Positions 3,867 to 62,042 are shown, numbered from the whole stretch's first letter. The stretch is DNA of 62,042 bases, filler included, from Choristocarpus tenellus KU-1152 (GCA_964200185.2; 9 parts of 9 records of this genome joined end to end with filler, not necessarily neighbours in it); one strand, 5' to 3'. Made by a program: numbers and translations. Notes: generated from the letters alone by a model not told the origin.

Positions 3867-3966
3867 NNNNNNNNNNNNNNNNNNNNNNNNNNNNNNNNNN
3901 NNNNNNNNNNTTAATTAATTAANNNNNNNNNNNNNNNNNNNNNNNNNNNNNNNNNNNNNNNNNNNN
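3867..3966. other. Artificial contig spacer (also at 9760-9859, 14476-14575, 29699-29798, 32523-32622, 38031-38130, 53455-53554 and 59441-59540)
   Basis: Identical 44 N + TTAATTAATTAA + 44 N linker, which places stops in all six frames. Confidence 0.98.
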
Positions 3967-38921: not shown

Positions 38922-41900
38922 ATGGCCGTCCAATGTGGCCAATGTTCGATCACTAGAGTGTTAGAGATACTGTTCGCAGCTCTTGTCGGTGCGTTGGTGT
39001 TCCGTACGTTGGGTATGGAGGAATTCTGCAATGAGACTGAGTTTAGAGATGTTTCACCAGGAAATCAATGCACCTGCCCCCCGCCAGGGAGCTCGGACGT
39101 GAACACTGTAGGGATTGTGGTGAGATGCGCCAAAAGAGTAAGATTTTTTTTCAGTACCGAGTTACAAGTTGAACGTCCTTTCGGGCATATTATCTCCAAC
39201 CTATCTTCTGCAGTTAGAAGCAGTTATAATTTTTCTCGGTATTTCGGGCACCTTTGACTATGTTTCAGCAGGGACATTACCTTATTGTGTAGTTTTCGGA
39301 GTGAAAACATGACGGTGTTGAAATGCCCACAAAGAAATGCCCCAACGCCGTCCATTAGATTCTGCCGTTTTTTCTTCCACACAGGTTGGGGAGCAGAGTG
39401 AGATCACGCCTACAAAACCAACGGCAGAGAACACGCTGGAGGAGGGCAACATCGTGCAAACGAAGGGATATTCTCCCGGTGGGGAAAGCGCAGTGGTAGT
39501 GGGAGGCGGAGTTGCAGCACCAAAGTTTGGACTACCTAAAGCCCTGCGAGATGTTCTGCATTCATGGAAAAGTGACCCCTTTATGTGGCATATGCCACAT
39601 GGAGCAGACAAACAAAGGGGAAAAGGCATTGAACATATGGTTCAGTTGGTGAGGGAATCCGCAGACGTTGATGCTACTTGTAGTGAGTCCTTTGATGTAT
39701 AGGGACGTCCTTTTAGGGAGTTGAGTGAAGGAGTCAGGGTTGATCTTTTTTCATCTCCAACCCTTATGCAAACAAACATGTGGATGGCCTTTGGAAAGAA
39801 TCAAACAATGTGCATTGAACCAGTAACTATGACCTCATGCACCTTTGCGTCCATCTGATCTATCAGTAACCCCATTCTCACCCCACATAGATTTTGTCTT
39901 CACTGTGTGATGCTTTAAATGCGTGGGACATCTAGAATTGCTTTTTTCATTGTTTGTGCTAGGTTTATTTGTCACTTGATACTTACTTTGTGTCTTTAAG
40001 GATGCGGTTGATATTGACACGAAAGAGGAAAGGAATGACTGATGAATGAGACTGTTGTTGAAGTTGTTTGCTTGTATTGGTACGATGGGATGTCCATATG
40101 AAGCACGTTTATTGTGTATAGGTCATGTTGGGGGTATTGCAGAGTTATATTGGCAAGGCAGTATAGGAAAGGACCCTTCTTCCATGTGAACTAAATACCA
40201 ACTGAGATGCTATCAATATGCTGTGTATAGAGATTGCCAATGCCATGTGCTCATTCATGCATTCATGATTGCTTTTATGTGGACTGTAGGACCCAATTGT
40301 GCTTCAACCAATAGAGTAGTGTAGCACAATGGGTGAGCACCAGTCCAACAACACACTCTCATTGTTGAGTAGTAAACTATCTCACTGAACCCTGCGAGAG
40401 CGGATATGACTTGTGAAGGTACAAAACCACTGAATGTTGCAAGTGGTGGCATTCAGTGCCCAGTTCATTGTCATTTTTTTGTTGTTGTGGGTGCAAATGC
40501 TCTGATTGAATGGCATGCATGAGATTATTTTTCGATTATTTAAGAGATGGTAATAGTCAACCTACTGCTCTCTCAACCATGTTGGCCTTACTGGTTTAGG
40601 TAGAAAAACTCAAGGAAAAATGCATTTGTCCAGCGGGGCTGATGGGTGTATTTGTATGGACATATGGTGATGAAAAAGGAGTGCCGCTTGTTCGCCAAGC
40701 TTATGAGGCCTGTGATTGCCCTTATGTGCAGCTTAACTACACTGCATCTAAATGGGACTGGTGAGTTGTCTGAGCCCCCTCTTGGAATATATCTAATTCT
40801 GTAATGTGATGCACTACTACTTCCAACCACAAGTCATGGTTGACAAATCTCAGTAGGATCAGACAGATAATGAAGAGATATTGTAACCTTTGTAATATGA
40901 TTCAAATACATGCGGAAAATCGCAACAATTTCTTGAGCAGTTTTAGGGGCATTTGGATATAGCTTCAATTGTAATCTGGCAAATGAGGATTTCTGGGTGA
41001 TGCAATTGGCACAGTACACAAAGCATAATTTTATACTTGATATACTATTCTACAGTAATTTGAACTCAAAGTGTAATATATAGCCCTCACATTGATTTGT
41101 TTATGTTCTACGCCTTCACTGTCGTCCCTTGACCATCTCCAGCTTTAGCAGCAGTATGCTAGAATATCCATGCTTATCAATGTGCTGCACAAAATTTGAC
41201 ATTGTGAAGAGGAGGTGTTGCCCTTTCTTTGTAGGCTGTATGGTTTATTCTTCCCAGAATATTGCTAGTTGTGTGTCCATTTGTATTGTTAGTACTTAAA
41301 TCATTGTAGTCACATCTCAAATGGTCTTGCGGACACTTCATAGTTAATACTATATATGCTTGGAGGTAGAGCACCATTACATCACCCTTGATCATTTTTT
41401 GTTAGATTGAGTTATGGAGCCTTCTTTTCATCTTCTGATGTCAGTAGTCTTCACAATTGTATTGGGTGGAGTTGCCTGTATGACAATGAAGGCTGGTAGA
41501 TTAAAATATGTTAAGTACGCACAGATGGAAACACACAGAATCTGCCAGTGAAGTTTCTATTGGTTTAGAATGAAATCCAGAATTTCCATGTACCAGATGC
41601 TTTGAGGTCCAGGCAGTGAATCATACCCGCTGTAGGACCGTGTGCCTCCTTTAGGGTATCAAATTGATGATGTTTCACCTCCTATAGGTGTCAAATTATT
41701 GACGTTTCATCTCCTATAGGGTGTCAAATTATTAATGTTTCACCTCCTATAGGGTGTCAAATTATTGATGTTACACCTCCTACTATAGGGTGTCAAATCG
41801 TTGATGAGTCACTGCAGTTGACTTGTATTGATATATATACTATTATTCAATCGTGGACAAGACATTATCAGAGCTTGGTACTATATATTAGATGAGTGCA

Positions 41901-44900
41901 ACATGTTGTAGTTCTAGGTGTGTCTATCTCACTTTAAGGGTTGGCTATGTGGTGCAGATTGTACAGAATGTTAAAGGATATGTAGAATCCCAAGTCTTGA
42001 TATTGAAATATGTAGATTAATTCCTTCTCACTTATTTTGTAGGAGGTAGAAAGTTGGAGTGAGATATATCGTTAAAGAAGGGGGGTGATAAACCTTTTAC
42101 TCTTTACTGTTCACTATTAACTCGTCAATCAAATTTACTTGCTACAACATTCCTTTTCTAGGATTCTTCTTGTTGTACTATAATAACCCGGATAATATTT
42201 TCTAGTCACCTGACAAAGACATTACTATAAATTATCCCGTTATTCAATAATAGTTCAACAACTCAATGTTTCTCCCACAGCATCATCTGTTACACATTAA
42301 TAAAAAGCATATTATTAACACTCTCCCCTGCTTTGAACTTCAAGTTTAAAATATTACCTCAAAATATAATCATCATATCACATCACACAATTACCCATAA
42401 TGATATCTGCATGCCAATTGAACAATTCCTTAGACAAACCCTTGGTAAAGAGATCTGCAATTTGAAATTTCTTAGGTACATATCCAATAATGACTTTCCT
42501 TTCCCTCTCTAGTTGTCGTACATAGTGGTACCTATTGTCTATGTGCTTAGTTCTACCACCAGATATTGCCTTCTGTGAAATCTTTATGGCACCATCATTG
42601 TCCTCAAACACAGATACAGGGTAATCCTTACAAAGTGGTAGCATGAACATGTGCACTTGCTTAAGGAACATAACCTCTTTCCCCAACTCACACAATGCAA
42701 CATACTTAGCCTCAGCAGTAGACAGTGTAACCGTTTNNNNNNNNNNCGACCACCAATCAACACATCCTCCCCAAACATCACAACACCCCCAGAAATAGAC
42801 AATGTACTGTCTTTACAGTTAGCATAATCAGCATCTGTATAGCCAATTAACTGATCTCTTGGTCCATTGCCATACACTCCAAAATCACCAAAGGTAATTC
42901 CATGCTCTTTAGTACCCAATAGATACCCAATCACTCTCATAGCATTCAACCGATCAGACCAACTTGTATTCTCCACACATGATGCCAACTGCAAACTCTG
43001 ATCCACCACAAGTGTCCCGGTTTCCTTGTTCCAGCAGCAAAGTTTCCACCTGCAGAAAATTTTAGTTGTCCTAGTCCCGCCTTGGACCTCTGCACTCTCC
43101 CTTTGCCATCCATCTGCCTCGGTCAAAAACCATATTTGTCCCTAGTGCCTTGTGACCATCAGTGGAGCGAGGCACTTGAATCCATACTCCCCTGCTATCC
43201 AGATCATCCACTTCTTCATGAATAGCAGCTTTCCACAAAGGCCACTCCTCACACTCTGCCGCTGCTCTCATGGTCTTAGGTTCTGGTGGGAGGGGTTTAT
43301 CTTTCCCACCCACAAGTAGACCAGCCATTCTTTGCTCATACCTTAGTGTCCGTTCGATGGTTCACCAGGTTCAGATGGGGGGTCGTGGTTATGGTCCACT
43401 AGTCGCAGTAACAACTTTCCACCACTCACTCCCCTGCTGTGACATAGGTGGATCCATACCACCAGCACCAGTGCTCAGCATCCCATCAGTACTTCCATCC
43501 TCCATAGTGTTCTCCACATCTATTCAACCTTCCCCACTTCCAAATTCTGAATCCAAATCCATTTTTTCCGAAGACACCCCTTTTGAAGCATTTTCCTCTA
43601 AAACCTCTTCTTCCGATCCCAAAGAAATTTCCTCTAGCACCAAATCCCCAGTCCTGTCAATCCCAGCAACAGAATATGGTTCCCAAACATAGTTGCGCCT
43701 GTTGACTATTTGTCCTGAAATTGCAAGAAGAACCTGCAGAGAATCAGACGGGTGGTCGGAAGAATACCCCATCATCAGACAAGGTTCGGCTCTTGGTGCC
43801 AACTTATGCATCCATTAGTCCACTCTCGTGAAACCCTTAGAACCCAAAGGAGGAAACAAATGAGGGTGGGTTGGAACACCATAAAACATTTCATACTGTG
43901 ATTTCCAGTGGGGGTTAGCAGTCTGGGGCAAAGATTTGTTAGTGTGGTAGCCATGTTGTGTGCCTCTTCCCACAAACCCAACCGATCCCCCAATCCAGCC
44001 GTGTGCATCATGACCAGCCCCTTCTCCGCTATCAGTGCAATCGCGAGTTCCACTTTCCCATTCAATTGGGGGGTACCCGAAACGGTGTACTCATGCATGG
44101 CGAATCTTGTGTTGATCCAATACCCCCTCAAAGTCCCCATTCCCGAATCATGTGTTGATCCAATACCCCCTCAAAGTCCCCATTCCCGAATCATGTGTTG
44201 ATCCAATACCCCCTCATCAGTCTCAAACTCCCCATTCTTGAACTCCGTGCCCTCATCAGTCCTAACATACCCAATGTGCAAATTTTCCACATCTGCCACA
44301 TCTTGAATAAAAGCCTGAAAATCCGTTGCAGTTTCATTCTTGGCTCGCAGGAATCAAATCCATCGCATTCCTGCCATGTCACATACCATCATAATCTCGT
44401 AAAGGTATCCACCCGCGCTGCTTGCCCTTGGCTTTGGTCTGCTCAAATCTATGAACACCCTTCCCAACCGTCGGTCAGACTTACTCTGGCAGAGCCATCT
44501 TTGGGTTAGGTCCCTCCCCCCCAACAATCCCCTCCTCTGGGACAATGGCATTAACTTCAACCCCCTCGGGGGGAAGTTTACTAATTTCTACAGCATCCTC
44601 CACTGATGGAAGTAGCCTCGATCATCAATCTTTCTTGATCAATATCCCTACCACTCCCCTCTTGGGCGAGATCGACATCTCTAGCCCCACCGTGGGCTAG
44701 GTCGATACCTCTAGCCTCATCCTGCACGAAGTCGACTCCTCTAGCCCTCTCCTGGGCGAGGTCAATACTTCCATCCCCATCCTGTGCGAAATTGATACCT
44801 CCAGCCCCCTCTTGGATGAGGTCGATTGCTACTGTTCCTCCAAGCGCAAATGCCACTTCGGTCTCATCATGGGGGAGTTGGTCTACGTGGTGGTGTAGGT

Positions 44901-47900
44901 TTTGTAGGCATTCTCCTCAAAGCCTTTAATGTGAACAAATCAACCTTCCCACGGGTTGATGAAAAAATAAGGGGAGGTCCACCTGCTGATGGGGTCAACT
45001 TCAAAGAATTTTCCCCTTGCCAATAAATTTCTCCTCCTGATTGGCATCCAGCTTGAACCATTGAGAAAAGATTGAACTTTAGCTCTGGAACCAACAGCAC
45101 ATTGCACAGAACAAAATCATAAACCTTCTCATTCTGTATACAACGTAATGGTAAGTTTCCAACCATGGTAGCTCGAAGTTTCTGTCCTGTACCAACAGTC
45201 ACAGACTTTCCACTAACAGGTCGTTGGTCTATTAAAGCAATGGGGTTGTTGGTTATATGGGTAGAACACGCAGTATCAAAATACCATATATCATCCCACT
45301 GTTCAATGTTCTTATCCCTCACTGTCGAGAAACCTCCAAGTATCTTCGGCGGTCCATTATTTCCACCATTCGCCTTCCCTCGACCACGCCTCTTCCTCTC
45401 TGTAGTTGCTGCACCACCATCTACAAATTGTTTAGCTGCCGCCATAGCCACTGCACATCCAGGACAACTTTTTGCTTTGTGTCCTGATCCGCTACAAATG
45501 TAGCTGGTACCGGAAAATTTGCCTGTTATATATAGGTGGGGAAGAACAGACGAACAAACAGACATGTAATGCAGTCCACTGCACTTGAAACATTTTACAC
45601 CATGTTTACCATGATGTCCAGCCGATGATGCTGAACGAGATCCATGATTGAAAGTCAAGCTTCGCAGACTCTCTTCTGTAGTTGCAATCTTGCCGATCGA
45701 CCCACATCGGAAATCTTTTGCATCTCAATCATACATTCTGCAGCAAAACAGTTATGAATAACTGTCAGCTGCTCTTCCTCGTCAGGTTCGGCACCAAGAC
45801 TCCCCAACTTCTTCACCAGCTTTTCCACCTCTTGGTTAATATCAGCAGGATCCCCCCCAATTGGTAGACACAATTCGTGTAATTTTGTCCTCCGGATCGC
45901 TCTTTCCGTGATACCATCCTCTTTGAAACGGTCTCTCAGATCCTGGAAAGCTTCAGATGGGCTGTTATCAACAATTTCGAGTGCAAGTCCTCCTACACTA
46001 ACAACCAATCATAACCAATCATAACCAATCCAGCTAACACCATGCTGGCTTCACGAACTTCTTGGCGTGTCCTCCTTGATGTATTTCCTCCTTGTAGGCC
46101 CACCCTGATATGGTCTTGAGTGAATAATGCATCCATTCATCCCCCCATCACAGCGCAAGTTACAAAATCATTTCTTGTACAAAGGAAACCCCTTCCCATC
46201 ATCGTCACCATGGTACGCCACAAATTTGGAGGGAAGTGGGATGAGGCGCACGCTCCCGCAATCCGTCTTGATATTGTGATCCCTCTTGTCGCTAGGTCCT
46301 CCTCATCATCAATGTTCTCATCATCAATGCCTGTACTTCCACGCCAACATCTTCAACCTCCACGTTCACGTTACGAACAACAGACACCATCGAGACTTAG
46401 AATGAACCCTCTACTAATAGCTAACTTGAGATATCAGCACACTTAAAAGTATGCTAGCTAGCATGTTAAAGAATGTGTAGAATCCCAAGTCTTGATATTG
46501 AAATATGTAGATTAATTACTTCTCAGTTATGTTGTAGGAGGTAGAAAGTTGAGTGAGATATATCGTTAAAGAAGGGGGATGATAAACCTTTTACTCATTA
46601 CCGATCACTAATAACTCATCACTCAATCTGTGTTACTTGCTATGTTACTTGCTACAACATTCCTTTTCTAGGATTCTTCTTGTTGTAATATAATAATACG
46701 GATAATATTTTCCTAGTCACCTGACAAAGACATTACTATAAATTATCTCGTTATCCAATAATAGTTCAACAACTCAATGTTTCTCCCACAGAATCATCTG
46801 TTACACATTAATAAAACATATATTCTTAACACATAAAGATACCATTTGTGTGAAATGTGCATGTAAACACACAATTTACTCAAGTCTTGGGTCCCCCTAC
46901 CCTTACCAGGTATCTGGGGGGCACTTTGAGGGGTCGATATTGAATCAGAGTATACCATACCCCTGGTATTCATTAGTACTTCAATGTTGTGTATTGTAGG
47001 ATATTGAAACCCTCTCAAGGTATATATATGCAGTGCTGTTGCAGGAGAAGTAAGATATTGTGCTAATCCTGTCGAATCATGTGCATATGTGCTTTCTCGG
47101 CCAATAATATTTTACATAGGGTCATTGATATATATATATATATTGTCAATGCTGACTATATTCCCAGGTTGTTGACTTAGATGTCCACCTGCTGTTGTGC
47201 CCTTTGTAGTATCTGAATCATGCACCGTTTTTTTACATACCTGAACCTTGCTTTGACTTGGATAAATTGGTTGTATCTACCTCCCTTTTTCATTCATTCA
47301 CTTGTGATTTATGTTGTTCTGGTTCAATACTTGCACCGACCTCTGGTACAACAACATCAAGGTGTTTTTGGAAAATTTGGTCATTGTGCTTCCATTTATT
47401 TGAAACAAAGGTGAATGCTCTTGTCTCGTTGAGACAAACACATTGCAGATCTGAAAACAAGATTTTGAGGTTGTGACTTATTTGTTGTTCCTTGTAATGT
47501 TTGTAATAACTCTGGAGTGCCACGCAGGTTGCCTTACAGCTGCATTTGGCTACAGAACGAAGCAACGTGTCTCAGTACCAGTAAAGTGTTTTCTAGCTTC
47601 CCATGGAAGGCGATGAAGTCTGAAAGTGTCACTTTGGTCACACAGAGCACTCTACTGATTTTCATAGTGCCTTCTGATTGGTCATATGTTCTGTCCAGCT
47701 TGGTTTGATGTGTGAATAACAAGAGCTTTCATGGAAACCAAAAGGTCTTGTATCTTGTATGTATCTTGGAAAATGCCAACAGCTGCTAGAATCTTTCCTC
47801 AAGGAAGAACTGTATCCTATTAGTAGGTCATTTTGGAGGTTAAAACTGGTCAAGTTGAGAGCCAGGTGGAAGAATTATCAGTCTTGGTAGTCAACAAATG

Positions 47901-51207: not shown

Positions 51208-53114
51208 GTAGATTCTTTGTCCCTTATCTTCTCCAGAAAGGATAATGTGATGGGTGTCATTTGATGTTACCAAGAACCAGTATCCAGAAGTATTCAGTGG
51301 ATTGATACTTACATGGAGCAGCGCTTGCTTGTCTTTTGCCAAATTGCATGTGTTATTCCTGTTTATGCTGTCCCTGCTGTCGAAGTCACCTCACCCCTTT
51401 GTTGAATGAAAGTGTTGTAGCTTTTTCTGCTGCATTGAGTATTTGGAGCTCTAGCAGGCACCTTATGTTCTTAGCAGGTGGGATAAGGAAAAATAGTTTT
51501 AATGAGAGGTATGTAAGTTAGCTTACGGCAATTTTTGTATCATTTTGTGAGCATGTGGGGTATTTTTCGTGGGAAGTAGTCATTACACCCGGTCCGCTCA
51601 CCATGTAAAATCAAGGATAGAGTTCTTTACTCATCAATGCCTTCCTGAATCGTAAGTATATGCATCCCCTGGTGTCCATTTTGACTTGTGTTGATTGTTG
51701 TTATCTTTTGCTTGTTGTGTTGCTTGCGTTGTGACCTTTCATGGTTTGTGTACTCTGTATTTGTATCTTGCTTATTGAGGTAGTACTGTGAGGAAAATGT
51801 GTAGGTTAGACTACAGTGTAATGTTGTACCACCTTCTGAGGTGTTAGCCTTGTCTTGTCTATTTACGAAGCCCTTGCAATGGTTATACTGTGATCTGTGC
51901 TTGATATTTTATAGTGCTTTAAATATGGTATAGGGGTAATAAGATCATCAGATAGGTTATGCTTCCTACCTTCAATTAAATGAGGGGTAGTGGTATCGGG
52001 ATGGTCTTCATTGTAAAAGATCTACAAATGTGTGCTGTGTGGGAGGGTATTTGCCATAGGGACCACCTGGATATCAAGTAGTTGATCTGCATAGATGAAA
52101 AGATAATATTTAGTCATATTTTTTGTCCTCATGTGCAAGCCTGGTCAATGCACTTCCCAAGGATATCTTGTGATATCACCTTACCCTACATTCCCATATT
52201 ATGGTCATACTGTGCAGAGGTCTACACTGATGCAATTTTTTTGCAGTTGAAGATAATCCCAAAACTACGAAATTTTGAGCAATATCCTCTTTTCCACACA
52301 CTGTTAATATTAATTTCAAGTCCCACCAAGTGTACAAGTTCAGTCCTATCTGTGATGATGGCCTGAAGCCACATTACTGGACCAAATCCACATAGGATGG
52401 AGGCGGGGAATGTTGAGGTCTGAATCTGTCCATAATACCCATCAACTCATTTTGAGCTATGACCGATCCACTCTGTTGGGATGGAACAAGTCTAAGGCCG
52501 CACACATGAGAAGCTCTCAGTTTGAAGTGAGTTGCGTTTGATCTACAAGAAGAGGTGGTACCAGAGCAAGGTTACTTGTGGTTCTTGTTGTTGTAGTTGC
52601 TAGGTAAGTCAGCCAGAGTGCTGTCATTGCTAAGTCTGAGGTCTCAAATACTGTACGAAGCACGCCAGCAAAGAAAGCAGGAGATGTGAATGAGTTGTCA
52701 TCCTTGCAACCATGGTTTGGCGAAAATCGAGGAATATTTGAAAGTAGTGGTACTAGTCAGTCAGAAGTAATATATTTCCGTGGGTGATTTTCTTCTGGTT
52801 GCTGTCAAATGAAAAGGACAATAGATAAATATCATATTTAAAGTATGGGGGGCGTATGGAGGTATATACGTGAAAAATGCGCCTGAAAGGTTGGGGAGTC
52901 TGTAACGGATTGGATAGTGATACATCTGTTCGAGGAAAAGACATGTCTTGTACTTACCTCCATGCCGTAAGTCCTTTCTGCGTTGTCCTTAACGTTTGAA
53001 GATGATGAAATTCATTTCTGAAAGATGATTTGGAATCCGAGACGAATTTCTGGTTAGGGTCAGCTCTTTTTATTATTATTACTCCCCATCCATCACAATC
53101 TTATCAACCACAGA

Positions 53115-53454
53115 AAAAGTCTCCATGTCTACCTTTGGTATGTTTTCAAGCTCACCAGACAACTGCCTCTTCCTTACCCCTGTGTGCTCCACACCGAAGT
53201 CATTCCCCTCTTTGTATCCAAGTACTTGGTTGTGCACCACAAAAAGGAGCTGTCAAGCCCTCTAAAGCGTGGTTTCATGATACTCCTCGTACTGTTTCTT
53301 AATGACCTTCACCATCTCCTGGACGGACCCAAACCACACCCCCATCACACGGCATTTCAAAGACCAGAAGAAGCACAGGTCCATGATATTGAGGTCGGGG
53401 GAGTTAGATGGCTGCATCACAAGCCCAATCGACCATCCCTCAGTCTTCCCTGCC
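53115..53454 (-). mobile_element. DD39D mariner transposase relic, C-terminal part
   Basis: The minus strand reads AGKTEGWSIGLVMQPSNSPDLNIMDLCFFWSLKCRV...QYEEYHETTL*RA*QLLFVVHNQVLGYKEGNDFGVEHTGVRK (QPxNSPDLNxxDLxFF motif). Confidence 0.85.
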
Positions 53455-56944: not shown

Positions 56945-57095
56945 CTGGGTAAAGGACGACAGCAATACGATAGGATTTGGTGAGGGCTCCACCCTATCAT
57001 TCCCATGAACTACCAATGCCACGAACATTCTTTTTATATATGAGTAAAAGTAGATTCCGTAGGAAGCAATCTGATTGTGGAAGTGGCCATATTTG

Positions 57096-58900
57096 TGTTC
57101 TAAGAATGAAGGATAGGTATGTGTTAATGAACAAGAATATGACAGAGTCCAGGAATGGGAAACATTGTAGCAAGTAAATATGTGATTAGTGATCCAAAGA
57201 ATAGGGTTGATTTGGTGGCAAGGACCCCTCCCCCCCTTGGGCTTGAAGGCTTTCCTCCTTTCTCCTTATATCATCTACAACATGTCCAACCCATTTAAGG
57301 AATTCTTTAAGTTATTTTTATACACAAGCCATGGGAACATCAGCTCCTTGAACATGCTAGCTAGCATTACTTAATGAAGTGTGCAAAGTTTCAAGGATAG
57401 CACGAATTGACTGGAGGAGTCCTGATGGAGGCGGCCATCGGTAACAGTAGGCTTGATGCAAGAAGAACAGAGTACAGAGAGATGACACCAGCAGCAGCAG
57501 TTGAAGATGATGGGGAGGAAGTTGAGTCAGACTTTGAGGATGACGAGGAGGCGGCTAGCTGAACCACACACCGTGCAAGGACTGAAGGAGAAGGTCTGTG
57601 GCGGCTGATCCCACTCCCTCCAAAGTTTGGGGGGTACAATGGCAATGGTGCTAAAGAAGGATATCCAACTCTTGAGAGAAACTTCCTCATGTGTACTTCC
57701 ATGGGTGGATGGAAGGACGTTCTTCTGACTGAAGACTACGTAAGAGTGAGCTGTGTCCAGTTCGACGAAACAAGATGGACTGAGAGAGAAGTCCGAAAGG
57801 TCAGCATGGGTATGGCAGCTTTGATTACGGGTTTAGGTTGACTTTCCAAGCAAATTGCAGATAATCACGACAGTCCTTCAGAAGCATTCCAAGCTCCTAG
57901 GAATCACTTTGCCTGGAATGGGATTATGGAAAGAGCAATCATGCAGTCCAGGTTTGTGCAAAATAGAAAATCATAAGGTGTACCCTATATTGTGTATGCA
58001 AGACTATGGCATTGGACTGAGTCCATGTAATGCAACTTATGAGATGGCACATCCAGATTATGCATGGGTTTGATATTGCAGTTAAAGGTACTCTGACATA
58101 ACCATTGACTTACCTATGAGGCATAAATAATAATAAAACATGCAATAAGGAGTCACCCCACAAGGTCACTCTTCTAATTTCATCCACCCATTCATTTAAA
58201 GATCAGCAAAGTGAAGTAGTTTGAGGCTCCCCATCTTCTTGCCTTCAATACTGATCAAATAGCAATACTTTCCCAGGTTAATTGTACAAAATTAGATTCT
58301 CATCTACCCGTGGGGGAAGATCCGACTATTGATACTATGCAGCTGGACACACTCGTCAAGAAGATTAGGTTGATTGATGATGAGCCTAGCAAGGAGGCCC
58401 AACTTAGCGCAATGAAAAAGTGCCTTTCTGAGGAGTATTTCTTGATAGTTGACAAGTTACTGGGAGAGGGTGTGTGACCAGCCTCAACCTTAAAAGGCAA
58501 GCCTTTGAGATCTAACGCATGAACTAACATCAACAAGAACGCCAGGTAGAGAGCAATGGTGCGGCAGGGATGGATCATGGAGCCTATGTGAGAGGCGGAA
58601 CTACAGAGTGTCGAAAGGGTCGACATTCAGGACATGAGGAATGCTAGCTGTGCGGTGGACCACACTATCAGTTTTCTTACCCCACTGCTGTTTCCTCACA
58701 TTCCGGATCCTACACAGGTGCTTGTGGTGTTTGTGGAGTGACATGAAACAAGGCTTACCGACGTCGTAAACACGCTGGAGCTGTTGGGGTGACCGGTCAA
58801 GGATATAATAATTCTGGATCAAACCCCAGAAAGAACAGGAAGAATGGTAAAGGAAAGGGGAGAGGCCATGCTAACAACAATAGTTGGTGGTGACGGAGAA
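57096..58900 (+). mobile_element. Truncated copia relative: 5' LTR plus gag, interrupted by about 450 bp of unrelated DNA
   Basis: LTR at about 57096-57354 (TGTTC...GAACA) shares TTGTAGCAAGTAA, ATTAGTGATC and CTACAACAT with the other element's LTR. Gag segments RLIPLPPKFGGY..MGGWKDVLLTEDYVRV (57600-57840) and LPVGEDP..LVKK..EPSKEAQL (58304-58470) align with the gag at 45655-46250. Decayed knuckles at about 58640-58760. Confidence 0.8.
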
Positions 58901-59729: not shown

Positions 59730-62042
59730 GCTGGTTCGGTGAAGTCCGTGATGGAGGTCATTGGACTCATGGAGATGTCTGGAATACGGCGTTTGGTAGA
59801 ACCCTACAACCAGGTGGTGTTGGGTGTCATCATGTTGTCGTTGTTAGAGTTCTGTGTGGTTTTGTTGCAACATGGGACAGATGTAGTGTACTTCACATCA
59901 ATGGGAAGTGTGTTTTGTAGTGCATGGCTTGCGTGTAGAGGATCGAAGACACGAAATCCAACTCAGCAGCAAGTCTCTTGTTCAGAATGGGACCGAGGCT
60001 ATTGTCAATTTTTGGGCTGGTGCAGATGGTGCTGATGTGTCAGATGAGGAACCGATTGTCCAAGGTGGGATGTCTACATACAGTGTTGAGGAGGTGGGGA
60101 GTGATGGTGGGGAAGTTTATGGAAGGAGTGCCAGGTGCTTCGAGGTATACATCTAATCTAGTCTGTGTGGATGGAGTGCTTGTTGGTTGCAACCTGTGCT
60201 GCTTGCATGCCTATAGTATACGGATATATATATATATACCCTTGCAAAGCGACCTGTTCATCCTTTTCCTTCTGACTTTTGAAACAATTTTCGGTCTTTT
60301 CTTTAGCTCTTTCCTACTCCCCACCCTGTGCCTCTTTGCCTTTCCCCCTAAACAAGGCCATCAAAGGTTTCAGGCAGCTGGGGGAGTGGGAGTGGGCCGT
60401 GTCCTTGATAGACACGATGCGTGGATCAGGGGTTCGCCCTGATGCCTACAGCTACTCGATGGCCATGGACGCATGCAAGAATGGTGGAAGGCGTGGTCGT
60501 CGACGTGCACTGAGGCTGCTGGAGGAGCTTAAGGTGGATGGGGTGAACCCAAACACTGTAGTTTATAATACTCTTCTTGGCTTATTTAGGGATTGTGGGG
60601 AAGTTAAGCATGGGTTGCTAGACCAAGTGCCGCAAAAGCACTCAGAAGACCAGGACCATGGCGATGGGGAAGGTAATGCTGGAGGGGCTCATCCTCTGCA
60701 GTGGGGAAGTCGCTTGGGGGAGGGAGGGGGAGAGGGGTCAGGGAATTGGGAGGAGGAGGAAGATGAGGAAGAGGAGGAGGAGTGGAGCATTGCACTGAGG
60801 CTGTTAAAGGAGATGTGCCTGAGTGGGGGAGAGGCAGCTCCAGATAAGCTGTCGTTTGAGCTTGTGATGCAGGCGTGTGTGAATGGGGGGTGTCCTGATA
60901 GAGCGCTGTCAGTGTTCCGGCTGTTGAGGAAAAGGGAGGCAAATGGGGAAAGTGCGGGAGTCTCCAAAAGAGGGGCAAGGGGAGGAGTGCGGGGGATGGG
61001 TGTTGCGGGCGTGGTGAGTGCAGAGAGGGCTACCTTTCGACTAGCCTTGCGTGCAGCAGCTGATGCAGGAGATGGGGCTGCGGCAGTGGCTTTGCTGGAC
61101 GAGATGCGTGGGGAGGGAATGGAGGATGATGAGGTAGTGATGATGGTTGGTTTGGTTTTTGTGTTGACTGTGGTAGTTCAGAGGGGCGAGGGGGTGGGGA
61201 ATGGGTGACATGGGTCAGGGAGGGTGGAAATGATGTGTTACTCTATTCACTGGGTGAGTAACTTTGGGGTTCACTGATGGTCTATGGATTCTTTTGCACG
61301 AGGATGAACATAGATTGTTCCCATTTTTTTTCTGTTGGAAAGTAGTTGTATTTGTACTGATGGGGATGTTGGTTAGGGTTAGGGTTAGGGTTGATTTGTG
61401 CCGAGTATTGTTTAGTGCTTAAGATGAGACAAGGCATTTTGCTGCAGAACTCCTCTCCGCCTCCTCACAAACCAGATCCTTTCTGATTTCCCAGTTCTTG
61501 GGGGAAACTTTCTAGCCTTCCCTCCTCTGAACACCATGCAATTGACTCTCTGAACCCACCCCACCCCCCCACCCCCGAACTCCTTTTTCCACTTCGGTCT
61601 TTGACAACGAACTCTACCCAAATGTACAAGTCATCGTTTCATCTGGCTGTTACTGCCTGTGGCCGGTCCGGCATGTGGCGTGAATCGGCTGGACTGCTGG
61701 TTCAGGCACGGAAGGATGGGTACAAATTAGCCATCGACACTTGCGCCAGTGTGGTTGGTGCTTGTGCCAAGAAGGCACGGTGGAAGGAGGCTATTGCCGT
61801 GCTCCGGGAGATTCGACCTACTATCCAGGCGTGGGTTTTATCTTTCAAGGGTGCTGGTGGTGGAGGTATGGGGAGAGGAAATGGCGTTGGGGATGAGGGT
61901 CGAGTACGAGGACTGGAGGCTGCAGGTGGCGCAAAGGGGAGGAGGGCGGGTGAGGGTGTTGTGCGGGGGCGGGGGGCGGGGAGGAAGACCGACCCGGCTT
62001 TAGTGTACAGTTTGGTTATGGCTGCGTGTCACGCAGCGGGTC
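59730..62042 (+). CDS. Pentatricopeptide repeat (PPR) protein, internal exons (partial at both ends)
   Basis: Exons 59730-59813, 60357-61133 and 61631-end. PPR motifs include GEWEWAVSLIDTMRGSGVRPDAYSYSMAMDAC, PNTVVYNTLL, PDKLSFELVMQAC, SFHLAVTACGRSGMWRES and CASVVGACAKKARWKEAIAVL. Confidence 0.88.

Follow-up and report, generated by a model that had tools for sequence, protein, structure and literature searches.

A co-varying palindrome marks the primer-binding position in Copia elements of a brown alga and of aquatic metagenomes, with a possible role in priming between two genome RNAs

Three primer types are described for LTR elements, namely a whole tRNA, half a tRNA, and a self-primer taken from the 5' LTR (PMC6317226). 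One self-primer is that of Tf1, which is 11 nt long and belongs to an element whose particles hold an RNA dimer; Tcn2-5 are noted in the same source as proposed to prime by novel means (PMC7175516). Within Copia, self-priming has been predicted for the TAR elements Houba and Osr-1 (PMC6317226). In the fungal GalEa elements of the Ty1/copia group, the junction carries a palindrome of 10 nt to which the LTR's final A belongs, and no model is said to fit it (Donnart et al., 2017; PMC5445492). This Conserved Hairpin Site (CHS) corresponded to none of the three primer types and was left unexplained (PMC5445492).

The window, that is the whole stretch of DNA analysed (62,042 nt including filler, from Choristocarpus tenellus KU-1152), holds a decayed Copia element, E1, which runs from 46831 to 41969 on the minus strand. 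Comparison of its LTRs delimits a 5' copy of 368 nt (46464..46831, TGTTAA...TTAACA) and a 3' copy of 352 nt (41969..42320), identical at 329 of 351 aligned bases. They are bordered by a 5-bp target-site duplication with one mismatch (4/5 match; TTATG at 46832..46836 on the 5' side and TTCTG at 41968-41964 on the 3' side, minus strand), and a polypurine tract (42321..42334) precedes the 3' LTR. Between the LTRs, all on the minus strand, lie a gag remnant with stops, frameshifts and an approximate start (45655..46300; Retrotran_gag_2 at E 9e-5, below the cut-off), an open frame with two zinc-knuckle-like motifs and a protease with the motif DTAC (44867..45724; Pol_BBD, E 2e-15), broken remnants of the integrase core and an SH3-like domain (43674..44494), the start of the reverse transcriptase (43074..43289), most of which is deleted, and the end of the reverse transcriptase with RNase H (42378..42990; YTDAD ... 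RTKHID ... ADLFTK, including a gap of 10 N). These domains stand in the Ty1/copia order (gag, protease, integrase, SH3-like, reverse transcriptase, RNase H), which together with the TG...CA LTRs, the 5-bp duplication and the purine tract makes E1 a member of the Ty1/copia superfamily, in agreement with the original prediction. The closest named proteins to its protease (80% identical) and to its RNase H (74-81% identical; 64-80% in the RNase H alignment) are from the brown alga Choristocarpus tenellus, which supports the stramenopile origin supposed at first. Three repeat features were also seen in E1: three 43-nt tandem copies at 44101-44229 within the integrase remnant, a 12-residue acidic repeat at ~44650-44850 between protease and integrase that also occurs in the relative P0011, and approximately 15 bases at 46627-46641 that are extra in the 5' LTR relative to the 3' LTR and form a tandem copy adjoining a 13-nt LTR motif.

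A second element, E2, is a plus-strand remnant comprising part of an LTR (57023..57354, start not defined) and gag remnants only (57563..58703, with a break at ~57955-58223). Neither pol nor a 3' LTR of E2 was found within the window, so the end of its LTR is set only by alignment with E1. The LTR remnant scores 62, compared with 26 +/- 3 and a maximum of 37 in 200 shuffles. The 13-nt motif is identical in the LTRs of both elements, which are identical at 571 of 830 aligned pairs; their longest identical run is 16 nt and ends in the palindrome described below. When the E2 gag was used as a query in a representative search, three matches were returned, one of them a true relative, from Choristocarpus tenellus.

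The 14-nt perfect palindrome ATGCTAGCTAGCAT occupies the primer-binding position of E1 (46451-46464, minus strand), and the same 14 nt are found by sequence match in E2 (57354-57367, plus strand). In E1 the 3' LTR is followed by flanking DNA with no palindrome, which fixes the LTR end, and thus the palindrome starts at the final A of the 5' LTR. A conserved 12-nt core, defined by the register across relatives, lies at 46463-46452. When a full-tRNA primer site was looked for within a few bases of the LTR, the E1 site was found to begin without TGG. Both claims made earlier for this junction, the shared 14-mer after two LTRs and the missing TGG site, are therefore upheld, with the E2 LTR end placed by homology to E1. 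At up to two mismatches, ATGCTAGCTAGCAT has these two matches and no other in the whole window (0.19 expected; 1 of 100 shuffles reached two). Perfect non-microsatellite 14-mer palindromes occur at three further places in the window, so palindromy alone is unremarkable and the position of ATGCTAGCTAGCAT is what stands out. The divergence of E1 and E2 had been taken to make a one-off mutation unlikely; a 14-base identical run at a pre-named place has a chance of p ~0.005 at their 69% identity, so the pair alone is modest evidence and the weight is carried by relatives.

A set of 99 relatives was assembled from the best 80 of 548 confirmed metagenome loci, found by RNase H alignment in a scan that covered 13 of 64 parts, and from 19 Copia-bearing contigs in bacterial genome bins. 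The Copia contigs in these bins (L102-L119) are most likely eukaryotic contamination. A 5' junction was called in 46 of the 99 and none was called in 53. The 46 junctions comprise 33 with a half-tRNA-Met-type motif abutting the LTR, one full initiator-tRNA site, two (L088, L113) whose degenerate, tRNA-like site was recognised by eye, and ten palindromes, the tRNA-type calls resting mostly on motif and position. The 33 are taken to be half-tRNA-Met sites on the strength of an anticodon-arm screen (CAU, cut after 40) and of the half-tRNA literature (PMC6317226). In L113 (~2095-2110) the site after the LTR is initiator-tRNA-like and lacks TGG.

Nineteen of the 99 relatives score closer to palindrome-bearing than to tRNA-primed references, four of the scoring references having come from within that group of 19. 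Among this same sample, every one of the lineage loci with a visible 5' junction (10/10) has a perfect palindrome of at least 12 bases there. The carriers are L018, L023, L025, L026, L029, L060, L072, L103, L107 and L108; L023 and L025 are one element, leaving nine distinct carriers. Both LTR ends lie in the contig only for L025, and the other junctions were placed by purine tract, TG...CA and gag. L025, L026 and L029 are apparently intact, with single frames of 1349-1509 aa, and RVT_2 is present in L025 and L029. Several candidates were left out: palindromes in L027, L032, L058, L063, L065, L066, L073 and L083 lie away from the 5' LTR junction, the single LTR end visible in L047 and in L073 is a 3' one with DNA other than gag behind it, and L120 matches over 18 residues only. 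Among viral contigs, pattern scans picked out 10 and 11 loci, none coding Copia protein, which were therefore taken as chance matches. Protein scans of the viral contigs found no relative, and Atlas searches with the relatives returned generic Copia clusters only.

The palindromes of the lineage differ by matched changes. The core is TGCTAGCTAGCA in the window and CGTTTTAAAACG, CGTTTCGAAACG, CGTTTATAAACG or CGATAATTATCG in relatives, and L060 carries CAATTTTAAAATTG, a perfect 14-mer shifted by one base at an ambiguous LTR end. Six different palindromes are present, five of them beyond the window's own, and their two halves have changed in step, also at the centre. With the LTR-final A as position 1, Watson-Crick pairing is complete from pair 2:13 through pair 7:8 in 10 of 11 rows, the exception being L060, and slid-register controls are 27-46% paired. 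In a covariation set of nine of the 11 rows (eight distinct; L026 and L060 left out), 54 of 56 cells are paired, and four of seven pairs and 13 cells are changed on both sides. No shuffle of 500 was as high for cells paired, cells changed or covariation score, and two of five covariation measures were matched by shuffles (85 and 99 of 500); relatedness of the rows inflates these controls, and the structure was derived from the same sequences.

All four self-complementary combinations (UA, AU, GC and CG) occur at the centre pair, with no mispair across families. A hairpin loop needs no central complementarity, so this was counted for a duplex between two RNAs. Pairing fails only at 1:14 (two of eight rows); thus the duplex that is kept comprises the 12 nt after the LTR, with the same geometry as half-tRNA sites that abut the LTR. 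Those sites match the anticodon arm of a tRNA; of six possible self-pairs they form 0-3 in the 33 rows, whereas the palindrome lineage forms all 6. The palindrome is a real, lineage-wide feature; very probably its self-complementarity is the property under selection and no ordinary tRNA primes these elements. The original prediction had looked to co-variation among relatives for support and had suggested priming without an intact tRNA; the former was found in a lineage of relatives and the latter is graded likely.

A single origin of the palindrome carriers is likely from protein comparisons. In a quick tree built from 95 RNase H rows, E1 and the carriers fall in one 21-row group with SH-aLRT 88. 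When RNase H alone was used with 41 and with 29 rows, all carriers came together in 94% and 35% of bootstrap trees, respectively; the unstable row was the half-tRNA locus L011. For a 474-column alignment of protease, integrase, SH3, reverse transcriptase ends and RNase H, 26 rows with near-complete pol were chosen, and the resulting tree joined E1, P0001 and eight carriers at 100/99 under LG+G4, all carriers being on one side of one branch, and a quick mixture-model tree of the same columns gave that branch SH-aLRT 99. Furthermore, four residues beyond the GY motif of SH3 a histidine was seen by eye in 7 of 7 carriers printed and in 0 of 16 other rows. All trees are unrooted and were built without GalEa, Ty1, CoDi, Osser or TAR references; given no inferred root and no named reference elements, one origin is put no higher than likely. 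P0001 and P0015, which lie on long contigs, form an unnamed Copia lineage, the sister group of E1's family in every tree.

A fragment of a host RNA could act as primer, as in the half-tRNA priming known from Copia lineages (PMC6317226), and the nearest other branch of the trees does use half-tRNA-Met. The anticodon arm of tRNAs follows universal rules, which formed the basis of the screen in place of host tRNAs. For E1 a single register passed, tRNA-Ala(AGC) cut after 37, making this the candidate primer. The relatives would need different primers, since their passing registers were AAA, GAA and AUC, with none for L103 and L060, and no register is common to the lineage; each such primer would also have to be palindromic by chance. 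The half-tRNA control sites differ under the same screen, giving anticodon CAU and a cut after 40. Priming by a host RNA is thus rated very unlikely, although tRNA-Ala(AGC) may serve E1 itself. ARAGORN found no tRNA in the window, and Rfam gave seven matches, all far below cut-offs.

In self-priming of the Tf1 or TAR kind, the 5' end of the transcript would pair with the site and be cut off as the primer. Such priming is predicted for plant TAR Copia (PMC6317226), and the 13-nt LTR motif common to E1 and E2 holds five bases complementary to the start of the site. However, the best perfect complement of the site in the element's own LTR is 5-7 nt in all eight junctions tested, against 11 in Tf1, and the palindromy would be left unexplained, so that this account is highly improbable. 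A downstream partner like CHSeq2, a 9-nt inverse copy found in fungal GalEa (PMC5445492), was also sought in the eight junctions, where the best perfect match was 3-6 nt. With complements as short as these in the LTR and downstream, neither the Tf1 arrangement nor the fungal CHSeq2 is present.

Folding predictions for the E1 palindrome give a 14-bp homodimer at -22.5 kcal/mol and a hairpin at -2.9 kcal/mol; across junctions the hairpin stem is 4-5 bp at -1.2 to -2.9 kcal/mol. Its pairing probability in the local fold is 0.96 in E1 and 0.01 in E2. Around the palindrome, a U5-leader stem is predicted in E1 between a U5 arm (46472..46490, minus strand) and a leader arm (46424..46444, minus strand) that contains AAGTGTGC, which is common to E2. 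The E1 duplex is predicted at -19.9 kcal/mol (z -4.7; 0 of 300 shuffles as good), and the stem is strong in 4 of 11 rows (z -4.7 to -2.3). Its median z is -0.95 in the 11 palindrome rows and 0.01 in the 33 rows of half-tRNA type (p 0.016, from rows that are related to each other). The whole local folds of six junction windows were no better than shuffles (z -1.3 to +1.2).

These folds bear on the possibility that the palindrome acts at the tip of the U5-leader stem as a signal for dimerisation or packaging, in the manner of the retroviral dimer initiation site, while another primer nearby is used. Full central complementarity would suit any two-RNA duplex, the stem closes round the palindrome in E1, L072, L026 and L023, and a likeness to the dimer site has been raised for GalEa (PMC5445492). 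A retroviral dimer site is similarly a palindrome able to join two genome RNAs, but a normal tRNA site precedes the loop in which it sits (PMC5445492), and in E1 the palindrome replaces that site. Moreover, no other primer site was seen beside the LTR in the junctions read, the stem lacks significance in 7 of the 11 rows, among them E2, and the palindrome keeps the exact register of a primer site. A role as dimer signal with a separate primer is therefore considered unlikely.

The favoured but tentative reading, whose chance is judged to fall a little short of even, is that the palindrome would serve as both primer and primer site between two packaged RNAs. Two genome RNAs, presumably dimeric in the particle, would form a duplex over the 12 bases that follow the LTR, and one of them would then be cut 3' of these bases, between positions 13 and 14, perhaps by the element's own RNase H if Tf1 is a guide. 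The new 3' end, at position 13, would lie opposite the partner's first post-LTR base and prime minus-strand DNA on the partner, so that the LTR-final A would be the first base copied, in the geometry of half-tRNA sites. The primer would have to be trimmed such that plus-strand synthesis stops after the palindrome, which is the weakest step. Plus-strand copying of the primer would set its reverse complement opposite the copy of the template, and repair could produce a matched double change in one step. The contrast between a hairpin of 4-5 bp at -2.9 kcal/mol and a two-RNA duplex of 12-14 bp at -22.5 kcal/mol favours priming in trans. By analogy, the 12-bp duplex is close to the 11-nt primer of Tf1 (PMC7175516), which was counted for dimer priming.

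Copies within the genome offer a further comparison. Over 651 bases, contigs from three runs (one organism, one study) aligned in numbers of 785, 510 and 162 across all identity bands, which indicates a family with many diverged copies; over 46412-46492 the three runs gave 54, 47 and 7 contigs. Differences appear to be listed only ~31 or more bases from the end of a piece, leaving 46442-46462 as the readable span. There, seven differences are listed at 46455-46458 (palindrome positions 7-10), four on the flank and none in the arms 46451-46454 and 46459-46462, these rows being few, near the listing threshold and not phased. Most of the depth keeps the reference letters in the palindrome. At least two contigs of run X3 have one central base changed and its partner unchanged, and the mirror change is also listed for two of three central changes, unphased. 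Single changes at positions 6-9 are predicted to leave the hairpin unaffected and to weaken the homodimer by 6-10 kcal/mol.

Uncompensated central variation would thus fit a hairpin better than a homodimer and counts against the dimer model. It bears on priming in cis, in which the RNA would be cut after the palindrome and its 3' arm would fold over a four-base loop and prime on its own U5, central symmetry being kept as a by-product of the loop copied into the plus strand. The differences at positions 7-10, which affect the hairpin little or not at all, the mirror changes and the high hairpin probability in the E1 fold all speak for such a fold-back. A stem of 4-5 bp, predicted at -1.2 to -2.9 kcal/mol, is short for a reverse transcriptase primer; in addition, the cut would part U5 from the rest of the template, and no family representative has a mismatched centre. 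Fold-back in cis is accordingly rated quite unlikely. Under the two-RNA model, a central mismatch may be the one best tolerated in the dimer, or the variant copies may be dead.

On sequence grounds E1 is like the GalEa CHS in position and symmetry, and it is not classed as GalEa. Both are Copia elements without a tRNA site in which a palindrome including the LTR-final A follows the 5' LTR, variants arise by matched changes, and a larger stem closes round the junction in some elements (PMC5445492). The protease motif DTG(C/A)/DTAC (DTAC in E1) and the ADxxTK end of RNase H (ADLFTK in E1) are also shared (PMC5445492). The palindrome is 10 nt in fungal GalEa and 12-14 nt in the E1 lineage, which lacks CHSeq2 (PMC5445492). 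The RNase H motif TDAD of E1 contrasts with SDAS/ADAA/TDAS/TDGS/VDAS/VDGS in GalEa and is found in 0 of 12 rows of MOESM5 sheet 1 (PMC5445492). GalEa is further marked by the reverse transcriptase motifs KARLVA/KSRLVI, YVDD/QTDD and TRPDI/CQPEA, and E1 has lost most of this domain. Finally, unlike fungal GalEa, the E1 lineage is brown-algal and aquatic and groups beside half-tRNA-primed Copia. A derivation of the palindrome from an initiator-tRNA site is a possibility suggested by sequence, as six of its first seven bases match a metazoan GalEa site (PMC5445492).

Other described elements share single properties with E1. Tf1/Tf2 and Tf1/sushi likewise dispense with tRNA, and their primer comes from element RNA cut in a duplex of ~11-12 bp, as shown for Tf1 and as would apply to E1 (PMC7175516). 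The half-tRNA-primed Copia elements Osser, Bryco, Gymco-II, Bianca and FunCo1 belong to the same broad protein branch, and their site also abuts the LTR (PMC6317226, PMC5445492). The diatom CoDi6 is, by description, a stramenopile Copia with tandem zinc knuckles that clusters with copia and Tnt1 (Maumus et al., 2009; PMC2806351); the main text of that paper, in the part available, contains no passage on a primer site.

The arrangement was not recognised when the sequence was first read. It is not wholly undescribed, given the published GalEa CHS (PMC5445492), and what stands of that remark is that no description of a palindromic primer site was found for E1's own lineage in a search that lay outside most subscription papers, the Repbase and GyDB notes, the Ectocarpus FASTA library and the CoDi supplement. 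The available portions of PMC6317226, PMC7175516, PMC2806351, PMC2864245, PMC5006619, PMC12477816 and bioRxiv 10.64898/2025.12.07.692804 mention no palindromic primer site outside fungal GalEa. It is possible, at odds slightly below those of dimer priming itself, that a whole Copia clade extending from a brown alga to aquatic eukaryotes replaced half-tRNA priming with dimer-RNA priming, a fourth way to initiate reverse transcription, in which event fungal GalEa would be an independent case. If dimer priming is true, dimerisation of the genome would be tied to the initiation of reverse transcription. A second Copia lineage with six palindromes, central matched changes and apparently intact members opens the GalEa question to direct experiment. 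In addition, tRNA-based annotation would report no primer site in palindrome elements, and the palindrome explains why.

Several other features were observed in the window. An initiator-tRNA-like site without a TGG start lies at 41862-41880 on the plus strand (TATCAGAGC at 41866), approximately 100 bases from the E1 3' LTR and adjoining 33-nt tandem repeats at 41646-41822; it is perhaps a remnant of another LTR element. A broken frame at 53058-53453 (minus strand) resembles by eye the end of a Tc1/mariner-type transposase, and Pfam at E 0.001 gave no match for its first 63 residues. Pentatricopeptide-repeat exons of a host gene were seen at 60276-61208 (plus strand) and 61487-62041, with Pfam PPR matches in the first and none in the second. 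Eight assembly gaps (3867-3966 and seven more) consist of N44, a 12-nt AT palindrome and N44; scans for repeats and palindromes in the window are dominated by this linker artefact. The longest perfect palindrome in the window, of 18 bp, lies at 39583-39600, outside E1 and E2.
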